From the UHGV virus genome UHGV-1461890: a stretch of 41,432 bases of DNA. One strand, given 5' to 3'. Below, one piece after another: positions 21,901 to 24,900 of this stretch (position 1 is its first letter; each line of letters starts with the position of its first letter). This DNA is from a virus. A program made the position numbers and the translations under genes. The notes under the pieces were generated by a model. The model did not search any database and was not told where the DNA came from. It saw only the letters and a program-made list of their open reading frames with translations.

Positions 21901-24900
21901 TGATATTACGGAGGCTCGTCAGATTGCTAAGATGGAAAATAGCACTCCTTCGGATAAGGCGATGGCTAAGAAGTATGGCGTAATGTATGGAGGCTATAAA
22001 GCCATGCAAAATGCAGCCAATAACTATCTTAGATTATGTGCCGAGAGAAGTATCTCACCTAAATTCTCACACGAAAACGCTAACTTTACTACTGAGGCTA
22101 ACTATTGGAAATTGCTCATTGACCGAAAGATGATTGACAACGTCACAGGCGAGGTTATTGAACAACAGGCAGTTAAACCTATATTTGACCAAGGTGAAGT
22201 GCTTAGAATCCTTAATGATGAGCTGGAGCGTTACCCTTCAGTTAAAGCTGACCAAGATTATGCTACTCGCAAGGTTACCGAGAACTTCCTTTCAGGCAAT
22301 ATAAAGGGTGGCATGTCAGCCGAGGCTATTGCTAAAGCCATGAAAAAGTCTGTAGACAATATTGCTAAGGTTAATATTCTTGCTTCGATGGGAGATTCAA
22401 AACTTTCTGACAGAGACTCAGAAGGCAATACCCTTTCTAAAGAACAACAGGAGTTTTTCAAGGATTCAAAGGTTAGGGATGAGAAGGGTAATCTCAAAAT
22501 TATGTATCATGGTACATCAAAAGGTGGGCATACTGTTTTTGATACCTACGGAAGCAATTATGGTTTGTTTGGTACAGGTTCATACTTTACCGATAACCGA
22601 GATATTGCCGAGTCTTATACTAAAAAGGGTAAAGGTAATAATCAACAAGTATATGATACATACTTAAATATCACTAATCCTATTGATATGGATGCTCAAG
22701 CAGATGTAAGCAAGTGGGAGAAACAATTTCCAGATGCTGATTTTTCTAATTGCACCACAAATGAAGAGTGTTATCGTGCTATGGAAGAATGGCTTGAGGA
22801 TGAAATGCTTCCTAAATGGGAAGCAGCAGAGATTGCTATTGATGGTCTACAAGAAATGGGATATGACGGTGTTACTCATATTGGCGGTGGTAGAGTAAAC
22901 ACCGATAGCACCAGACATCGTGTATACATTGCATTTGACTCTAACCAAATCAAAGAAACCACCAACACCAATCCCACATCCGACCCTGACATTCGCTATA
23001 GTGAAAGAGATGCCATCGAATCTGAAAATAAGATACTCGACCTTGAAAGTCAAATATCTGAAATTGAAGAGCAGTTGTCAGAGGACATCTTTGACGAAAT
23101 TCCTGATGACGAGCGCAAGAAGATGAACAATCAGTTGTGGAAACTCCGTAACGAGTTGCAAAAACTCGAAAAGGCTGAAAGAGAAGCAACGGTTAAAACC
23201 TCACTTTCAGAGATTAGAGACAACCTTGACAAGTACAGATATATTGACCTGAGAAGCCTTGCTGAAGGCTTAGGTTGGGAAGAGTATGCGGATTTATCAA
23301 AGACTCAACTTGCCAACGCTTTGAGAGAAAGCCTTAACGAAATTGAGCAGGAATGGAAAGAAGATGAAACATCTGATTTTAATTCTGCTAAAGACGGAAT
23401 GTGGATAAGACCTATATCCGAAGAGGAAAGCAATAAAGTGATAAAGGTTAAATTCCAAGACCGAGATGCTGATACCACCGAGAACATTGAAAAGATAAAT
23501 AAGCAACTTGCCAAAGAAAACTTAAAACTCATTGAAGATGTTAAGTATCTGAAGGAACTTGTTAAGCTTCAGGGCAAAGAGACTCATGGTAAGGTGCTAA
23601 AGAAATCTACCGTTGAATTAGTGGCTAAAAGGTTGATGACTTATGTAAGTGCAAGGGGTAATACATCTGAGCTTGTAGGTCACCTGACCAATGTATATAA
23701 CTACATAATTCAGGGTGAGGATGTTTCTTGGGAAGGTATACAGGAAAAGGCTGAGGCTGCTGCTGATTGGTTGATGCAAAACGAACACCACAAACCTGTT
23801 CGTGACGATGTAGCAAACGAAATACTGCACTATCTTCGCACAACAGGCATCTCGTTTGACTCAGGCCAAAAACAAGAAGCGGCATATCGATATGACAGTT
23901 TTAACAATTTCCGTAAAAAGAATATGGGTCGCTTAAAAATCACAAATGATGGCCTACCACTCGATATGGCATGGCAGGAACTTGCTTCAATGTATCCCGG
24001 ATACTTTGACCCAGAAGTTAATTCCAATGACCAACCTCTTGTGTTAATGGATATAATTGACGGTTTGCAAAACACCTATGAGTTAGACGATTATCATTAT
24101 TATTCTGACGAAATGATTAAACAGGACCTTCTGATGAAAATATACGAAGGTTATTGGGATGTATCTGCTCTTCACACCGTTGCTGATGCAAAGCAAAAGG
24201 AAATCAATCTCCTGAAAGCTAAACATAGAGAAAGTATGGATTCCTTGAGGCAGACTCATGCTGAAGCCGATGCTAAGCTCAGACAGGAGCATAAGGATAA
24301 AATTTCTCAGCTTAGAAGTCAGTATAGAGAGCGAGAAGAGAAAAAGGTGCAGAAAGTAGCTGAGTATTATCAGAAGTCTCGTAAAGAGGCGGTTGATAGG
24401 GTAAAGGAATCTCGTGAAAAAAGAGATGCGATTACCAAACTTCAGAGGCTTGTTCTTGATACTGCTAAGTGGGTATCTTACCCTGCTAAAGATGCGGTTA
24501 AATGTCCTGACATTATCAAAGTTCCTTATGCAGAATTTTTAGAGAGTATAGACCTATCTTCTAAGAGATTACTAAGCGGTGGTGAGCCTACTCAGAATGA
24601 CCTTAGAGTAGCAAGTGCTATGGATAGTTTAGCTAAGGCTATTGAGCAGAAGTTAGGCACACAGAGACCTGATACCGATACGGAAACTGTTCTTGACACA
24701 GGCTATCTTGACTTGCCTGTACACTTTGTTGAAAATCTCAAAGAGTTAGCCGAATCCCTTAAAAAACGAATGGCAACAGATGGTCACATAGTAAACTCTA
24801 TGACATCTACTGAAATTAGGGACCTTACAAAGTTTATAAGAACTTTAAATCACTCCATTAAGGAAATGAGTACCCTATATGCTAACATGAGATTTGCAAA

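Follow-up and report, generated by a model that had tools for sequence, protein, structure and literature searches.

ART-PolyVal (PF18760), a family of ADP-ribosyltransferase (ART) domains from polyvalent proteins of phages and conjugative elements, has been described as the commonest protein-modifying domain in polyvalent proteins and is postulated to modify host proteins as phage T4 Alt does (PMC5512222; PMC9503650). The family has been placed in the Tox-ART-HYD2 clade, and its own signature combines a His in strand 1, a Tyr in strand 2 and an Asp in strand 5 (PMC5512222). Two further phage proteins invite comparison: AcrIF11, a tested and highly target-specific mono-ADP-ribosyltransferase (mono-ART) directed against a defence protein (PMC12421852), and a large protein of cyanophage A4 (PDB 9K3A) that has been physically seen inside the capsid core and has an alpha+beta domain that its authors left unnamed. 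Here we analyzed the virus genome UHGV-1461890, a stretch of 41,432 nucleotides (nt) hereafter referred to as the window, and focused on its giant open reading frame (ORF; 15917-27265, + strand), which according to the ORF list and its translation specifies a multi-domain, 'polyvalent' putative virion protein of 3,782 amino acids (aa). We found that this protein carries an ART-PolyVal domain (22433..23011, + strand; aa 2173-2365, delimited with a hidden Markov model (HMM) built from 178 copies), and we consider it fairly probable that it is a virion-delivered mono-ART, with one ART-PolyVal domain in a polyvalent protein, that acts on a host target early in infection.

The family assignment is supported by several searches. 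A Pfam scan of the whole giant protein returned one family, PF18760 (hmmscan, E = 1.8e-21, 77.8 bits against a gathering threshold of 31.2, profile positions 1-139 of 140), with the matched part at aa 2188-2354 (nt 22478-22978, + strand). The isolated ART fragment matched the same family at E = 7e-24, and close homologues of the domain bear precomputed PF18760 matches. The sub-threshold matches of the isolated fragment were PARP (PF00644; E = 0.053, 13.5 bits, cut-off 26.7), over the N-terminal half only, and DUF3990 (E = 0.0084), and a PDB profile search with the ART profile reached tankyrase only at an E-value of about 1. The original prediction had likened a peptide, LKIMYHGTSKGGHTVFDTYGSNYGLFGTGSYFTDNRDIAESYTK, to the PARP catalytic core and had proposed a profile search against ART-fold families; the peptide is indeed in frame in the giant ORF (aa 2193-2236 = nt 22493-22624), and ART-PolyVal, one of the families that it had named, proved to be the match. 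A six-frame scan with our own 178-copy HMM detected a single ART copy in the window, and the GC content, which is uniform across the phage (~0.33-0.44), runs through the ART segment without a break. Library-wide, a phmmer search retrieved 5,412 relatives with an E-value of 1e-3 or lower, of which 372 reached 1e-30 or lower; they are mostly proteins of 2,000-5,000 aa with up to 9 ART copies apiece; those in genomes come from metagenome-assembled genomes of gut Clostridia, Bacilli and Bacteroidales.

The predicted structure agrees with this assignment. An AlphaFold2 model of the domain, computed from an alignment of 30 homologues, reached a predicted local distance difference test (pLDDT) score of 91.7 and a predicted TM-score (pTM) of 0.87. 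Its elements run from strand MYHGT through strand SYFT, helix RDIAESYT and a beta-hairpin to three helices that form an insertion, after which come strand GVTHIG (with Asp2317 just before it), a ten-residue loop, strand HRVYIA and the short strand IKE. The best structure match was 9k3a_B, a 1,071-residue pre-ejectosome protein of cyanophage A4 (10.8, 148 residues aligned), and other matches were Tankyrase-2 (8.4), PARP4 (8.2), PARP1 and PARP15 (7.6 each), AcrIF11 (6.9), diphtheria toxin and MbcT (6.7 each), Tpt1 (5.6, 74 residues) and R-S-E toxins (about 4). TASOR, RCD1 and PARP13 were also among the 60 structure matches listed, which included no DarT structure. As modelled, the fold is that of the H-Y-x (PARP/diphtheria-toxin) lineage, and the signature residues of the H-Y-D configuration lie where they are expected, with H2198 in model strand 22-26, Y2223 in strand 48-51 and D2317 starting strand 144-149. 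The R-S-E configuration (Arg in strand 1, Ser-x-Ser in strand 2 and a Glu-x-Glu motif in the ADP-ribosylating toxin turn-turn (ARTT) loop) is not found in the domain. It is thus an ART-PolyVal member by every feature testable, and neither a member of the PARP family nor an R-S-E ART of the Alt type. The original prediction of an ART-like domain, which had made itself depend on an ART fold being predicted, is borne out by the PF18760 match together with this confident model.

We then examined the active-site positions in an alignment of 237 domain copies drawn from all proteins and loci fetched, and in a set of 178 close copies. Default hhalign runs against diphtheria toxin and PARP1 covered the N-terminal half only, and relaxed settings with a deeper profile were used for the rest; the numbering of the toxin was verified by counting. 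The predicted NAD-binding His2198 (22508..22510, + strand; motif MYHGT in strand 1) corresponds to PARP1 H862 and diphtheria toxin H21 and is kept in 232 of the 237 copies. Tyr2223 (22583..22585, + strand; motif GTGSYFT in strand 2), the counterpart of PARP1 Y896 and diphtheria toxin Y54, is Tyr in 168 of the 178 close copies, and the position is aromatic throughout all 237, with Tyr, Phe or Trp in the distant ones. Tyr2234 (22616..22618, + strand; helix AESY), the predicted second nicotinamide-stacking Tyr, equates to PARP1 Y907 and diphtheria toxin Y65 and is present in 171/178 copies, while F2208 is kept in 235/237. The PARP register HGS...GxGxYF...Y read from the letters in the original prediction is therefore the one that hhalign returns (H2198 = H862, Y2223 = Y896, Y2234 = Y907).

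In the C-terminal half, Asp2317 (22865..22867, + strand; motif GYDGV) is Asp in 234 of the 237 copies and Asn in the other three, and the motif Q2344-I-K2346 (22946..22954, + strand) is similarly constant (Q in 234/237, K in 230/237). Relaxed hhalign of the 237-sequence profile against PARP1 (probability 46%, E = 2e-4, 143 columns) aligned YD2317GV with PARP1 LD965GV, V2336 with E988 and Q2344 with Q996, with posterior digits of 6-9 over the EYIVYDIAQ block, and the distant-only subset gave the same register; neither relaxed nor global hhalign to diphtheria toxin gave a usable C-terminal register. Val2336 (22922..22924, + strand) thus occupies the position of the canonical catalytic Glu, in keeping with the earlier remark that no clear catalytic Glu is obvious. 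Position 2336 is Val in 156 of the 157 copies that are at least 45% identical, and Glu in 27 of 80 distant copies, which otherwise have Ser, Thr, Ile or Val. The E988 position varies likewise across the PARP family. As the aligned sequences read, the subfamily is H-Y-V at the canonical positions with an invariant Asp one strand earlier. The proposed span of 22480-22930 covers the His, both Tyr, the Asp and Val2336, but cuts off the Q-I-K motif and the PDIRYS motif described below, and of the H-Y-E/PARP class label the PARP-like register holds, whereas the PF00644 score lies below its cut-off and the Glu of E988 is not present.

Which residue acts as the acid depends on the register. We judge the hhalign register, with V2336 at E988, somewhat likelier right than wrong from the profile alignment, and regard D2317 as the true structural equivalent of the Glu as a possibility with appreciable but lesser weight. 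D2317 is the only invariant acid and must therefore be the Asp of the published H-Y-D signature. An assignment of D2317 as the E988 equivalent, made by counting strands and from the H-Y-D label, was dropped after the profile alignment and in view of the E/I/V/S/T variation at position 2336. Under either register there is no Glu for poly-ADP-ribose elongation, and the domain is thus predicted to be a mono-transferase. Moreover, since Val2336 is fixed in the subfamily and every family-invariant residue is intact, the missing Glu does not look like decay; of the earlier suggestion of a divergent or inactive ART, or an NAD-binding scaffold, the lack of the Glu stands, but inactivity is judged less likely than a Glu-less mono-ART.

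Two further features of the domain may bear on its target. A helical insertion (22706..22855, + strand; aa 2264-2313; model helices 90-96, 108-121 and 126-139) separates the halves of the ART core and is a candidate target-recognition region by analogy with AcrIF11, which has a variable helical region at the same topological place (PMC12421852). Between the Asp and Val strands lies a subfamily loop, GGGR...[RK]H[RQ] (22883..22921, + strand; aa 2323-2335), at the place of the PARP acceptor loop and the toxin ARTT loop. In known ARTs, the loop at this place governs substrate choice. G2323, G2324, G2325 and R2326 are kept in about 147-157 of the 178 copies and H2334 in 156 of the 157 copies at least 45% identical, whereas distant copies lack the loop or have a different one, and frequently carry Glu at position 2336; model confidence is lower in this region (pLDDT 66 for block 151-160). 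Just after the domain, outside the Pfam model and at low model confidence, is a P-D-I-R-Y-S junction motif (22985..23002, + strand; aa 2357-2362). The pattern P[DN][IVLM]R[YFH][SQA] occurs 69 times in giant relatives, 62 times directly after an ART copy and 7 times after other modules; the motif is possibly a linker or a processing site.

Comparison with related loci indicates that the domain moves as a unit. The giant ORFs of two IMG/VR contigs, L012 (4808-12289) and L013 (6776-15094), share essentially only the ART module with the protein studied here, at 62.7% (L012) and 52.8% (L013) identity over about 200 aa, the rest of these ORFs being at most 25% identical or unrelated. In L012, the giant ORF stands at the same position in the gene order and is then followed by fibre, endolysin and integrase genes. 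The ART module thus behaves as a conserved cassette that is moved among fast-changing giant proteins, as described for polyvalent proteins. Distant ART-PolyVal copies (25-30% identity) also occur in Pseudomonas phage F116 (F116p59-p60), crAss-like phage cr130_1 (gp79-gp80) and Bacillus phage Dartukuta (gene 57), in proteins of 1,649 to more than 4,000 aa from these isolated or named phages, whose records give no annotation beyond 'hypothetical protein' or 'putative methyltransferase'; the ART domain is thus un-annotated in public phage records.

The giant protein as a whole is a string of independently occurring modules, as judged against 116 giant relatives that were chosen for carrying the ART module (so that the ART count of 116 reflects the selection), and a 100% identical protein is present on ENA metagenome contig ERZ27229672:k119_288479. 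A Gly/Ala/Ser-rich region (aa ~340-770) precedes a zincin-motif module (18464..19711, + strand; aa ~850-1260), which is carried by 12 of the 116 relatives and contains H1108-E-L-T-H1112 ... E1166, with H1108, E1109, H1112 and E1166 invariant in 14/14 aligned relatives (window 19238-19252 and 19412-19414). It has no Pfam, NCBIfam or PDB sequence match, and going by its HExxH...E motif it is probably a metallopeptidase, a candidate for the metallopeptidase hub domain of the polyvalent protein, MPTase being the hub domain of such proteins (PMC5512222). A stretch at aa 1351-1433 (window 19967-20215), common to almost no giant relative, gave a weak, sub-cut-off match to the MuF C-terminal domain (PBECR RNase-like; E = 0.2, 12.2 bits). 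In the relatives themselves, two domains known from polyvalent proteins, LPD3 and MuF_C, score above threshold, and in one of these relatives (P0089) MuF_C stands elsewhere in the chain.

Directly 5' of the ART domain is a 660-aa upstream module (20417..22396, + strand; aa 1501-2160), common over aa ~1530-2150 to 23 of the 116 relatives. It is modelled confidently (pLDDT 85.9) without a family assignment, and its three invariant Cys (C1605, C1652 and C1655) are spaced C-x46-C-x2-C, not CxxxCxxC; it has been likened to nucleic-acid-modifying radical-SAM enzymes. A BFVD Foldseek search with this module returned one uncharacterised phage protein and nothing else, and no mention of the module was found among polyvalent-protein domains. 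Downstream of the ART domain, a C-terminal module (23474..26698, + strand; aa 2520-3594) corresponds to PHROG 22978 (phrog_22978, E = 1.2e-184) and is found in 12 of the 116 relatives. NCBIfam gave no match on the giant protein, Pfam on ten overlapping segments gave only sub-threshold noise and the weak MuF_C match, PDB sequence searches with the ART profile and three other modules gave no credible match, and tblastn of the C-terminal third found one unannotated faecal fragment only. Polyvalent proteins combine at least two unrelated effector-type domains, typically with a zincin-like peptidase; here the ART domain is firm, the peptidase is represented by its motif only and MuF_C by a weak match, while the remaining modules have confident folds or conservation and are matched by no Pfam polyvalent-domain model. 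An interpretation of the giant ORF as a tape-measure protein was rejected on the grounds of its mostly globular modules and only one hydrophobic segment.

Taken together, we propose that the giant protein would be produced late, be incorporated into the virion and be expelled into the cell with the DNA, where its own HExxH peptidase may cut it into modules. The ART domain would bind nicotinamide adenine dinucleotide (NAD+), with the His contacting the ribose and the two Tyr stacking the nicotinamide, and would attach one ADP-ribose to a macromolecule of the host. The modified molecule would most likely be a protein involved in transcription, translation or defence, and the modification would help the phage to establish itself in the first minutes. 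The acid could be D2317, or catalysis could be substrate-assisted as in H-Y-I/L PARPs, and target choice would be set by the helical insert and the GGGR...RHR loop. Packaging and ejection are suggested by the gene order, by T4 Alt, by the polyvalent model of Iyer et al. and by the A4 fold match. Several points weigh against this proposal. The support for packaging and ejection consists of gene order and the match to A4 at the level of the fold; no Pfam MPTase match in the ten overlapping segments of the giant protein backs the peptidase; and the searchable literature holds no ART-PolyVal member with published biochemistry. In addition, Val replaces the canonical catalytic Glu, and hhalign puts the Asp one strand before the E988 strand, which departs from the most straightforward understanding of the published 'D in strand 5'.

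These points leave room for other explanations of the domain. It could be directed at nucleic acids, placing ADP-ribose onto a terminal phosphate of RNA or DNA (host RNAs or the incoming genome ends), with the basic loop holding the phosphate. The Val at the E988 position would suit such a reaction, as a phosphate nucleophile needs no Glu, which is the case for Tpt1 and the Glu-less PARP10/11/15, and the conserved Arg/His-rich loop at the place of the acceptor/ARTT loop, together with an adjacent module likened to radical-SAM enzymes acting on nucleic acids, points the same way. However, the fold similarity to Tpt1 is weaker than that to the PARPs and extends over 74 residues only, DarT is missing from the 60 listed structure matches, the clade was assigned by its describers to protein-modifying relatives, and the loop is a trait of the subfamily and not of the family, so that we hold this explanation to be unlikely. 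Alternatively, the domain may be catalytically dead, an ART-shaped structural or NAD/ADP-ribose-binding module of the virion internal or ejection apparatus, which would fit the lack of Glu at the canonical position, the best structure match (a domain from a cyanophage A4 ejection protein that is structural and to which its authors ascribed no enzymatic role) and the existence of pseudo-PARP domains, three of which, TASOR, RCD1 and PARP13, were matched. The His has usually been lost in known dead PARPs, whereas about 95-99% of the 178 close copies here retain it together with both Tyr (Phe or Trp often stands at the two Tyr positions in the most diverged copies). Conservation of the ART module also greatly exceeds that of the remainder of the giant protein, and the up to 9 copies in relatives fit an effector better than a scaffold; a dead domain accordingly has only a small chance of being the answer.

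An NAD+ glycohydrolase (NADase) or phosphorylase, which would use up NAD+ or convert it into a small ADP-ribose derivative, perhaps to interfere with NAD-dependent defence signalling, seems very unlikely. Some phage ARTs have been proposed as NADases (PMC9503650), but the transferases among the structure matches (PARPs, diphtheria toxin and AcrIF11) score as high or higher, and no cognate antitoxin, immunity or eraser gene is evident in the window, Pfam having found no eraser or immunity gene (macrodomain, ARH or NADAR) among its other ORFs; about one copy per virion would, moreover, presumably be a weak weapon. That so long an ORF should contain the signature by chance alone, an idea favoured only by the short length of the motifs quoted in the original prediction, is refuted to the point of near-impossibility by the full-profile Pfam match (E = 1.8e-21), the thousands of homologues and the confident ART fold. 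There is, finally, a more specific idea that we consider improbable, namely that the Glu-less subfamily (H-Y-V with its invariant Asp and conserved GGGR...RHR loop) may not be a protein modifier but a pre-packaged enzyme that, seconds after the DNA enters, ADP-ribosylates phosphate ends of nucleic acids, or else a defence protein, maybe with the three-Cys radical-SAM-like module; if true, such virion-delivered chemistry, directed at nucleic acids or at defences, would be of a new kind.

The virion-delivered mono-ART that we favour would be encoded by a temperate tailed phage, which the window is, and whose host is predicted to be a low-GC Gram-positive bacterium (Clostridia/Bacilli-like). According to PHROGs and Pfam, the window encodes small and large terminases (3398-4021 and 4014-5480), a portal (5482-7485) and a Prp-type cysteine protease (7498-7842; PF04327, E = 1.2e-13), which stands between the portal and the scaffold/head genes, an arrangement typical of low-GC Gram-positive phages. 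These are followed by the major head protein (8927-9949), an 'internal virion protein'-like gene (10692-12413) and a tail protein (DUF859; 13142-14698), and the giant ORF itself sits within the late structural genes, between the tail-protein genes and a BppU_N/collagen tail-fibre gene (27317-29203). Further downstream are an amidase endolysin (31183-31893), a serine integrase (32111-33607, - strand), a CI-type repressor (35204-35626, - strand), a Cro-type helix-turn-helix gene (35791-36045), RecE/RecT (36561-38353), SSB (39036-39470), a DNA methyltransferase (39486-40199) and a DnaD-like loader (40265-41014). With 25 kb of the window as query, megablast gave no match among the INPHARED phages.

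The 5,412 representative ART-PolyVal proteins are mostly giant phage proteins, none with a demonstrated activity or target, and a clean, single, well-folded copy in a temperate gut-type phage of ~41 kb offers a convenient entry point for biochemistry. A subfamily with Val for Glu and its only invariant acid one strand earlier sharpens the question of catalysis, and should the domain enter the cell in finished form together with the DNA, the identity of its target would indicate the host function that the phage must neutralise first. Mildly new points are the H-Y-V-plus-Asp reading of a large subfamily, which differs from the simplest H-Y-D reading, and the conserved loop.

Among known systems, the domain resembles ART-PolyVal in its full-length match, the His of strand 1, the Tyr of strand 2, the invariant Asp and its setting in a giant multi-domain protein among virion genes, as well as in cassette shuffling and the combination with an HExxH module, relatives combining with LPD3 and MuF_C. 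It differs in its single copy (relatives have up to 9), in the GGGR...[RK]H[RQ] loop and in carrying Val at a position that is Glu in about a third of the distant members. With tankyrase and the Glu-less mono-ART PARPs (H-Y-I/L/Y) it shares the register of HG[ST], GxGxYF and the helix Tyr, as well as a C-terminal xYIAFxxxQ comparable to EYIVYxxxQ, and like the mono-ART PARPs it has a hydrophobic residue at the Glu position. Unlike PARPs, it has no helical regulatory domain, a much shorter last strand, a large middle helical insertion and its own invariant Asp, Gln and Lys motifs, and it scores below the PF00644 cut-off. AcrIF11 (PDB 6KYF, 8DWQ), an anti-CRISPR protein of phages and plasmids, is similarly a small ART related to diphtheria toxin that has a helical insert and depends on an Asp as its essential acid; in contrast, it is a free early protein of 130-160 aa with H-F-H-D key residues and no detectable sequence similarity to the ART domain, and there is no sign here of a CRISPR target. 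The pre-ejectosome protein of cyanophage A4 (9K3A chain B, probably gp28, by length) is likewise a large multi-domain protein, an ejection protein that itself also carries a metallopeptidase and a lytic transglycosylase, although it is only 16% identical to the ART domain, was not found by tblastn and is likened to it at the fold level. Phage T4 Alt offers the proposed logic, a packaged ART injected with the DNA that acts on RNA polymerase and other host proteins as infection begins, whereas it belongs to the R-S-E clade with other active-site residues and is not part of a polyvalent protein. By prediction, therefore, the logic of this domain would be like that of T4 Alt, and its chemistry like that of the Glu-less mono-ART PARPs or AcrIF11.

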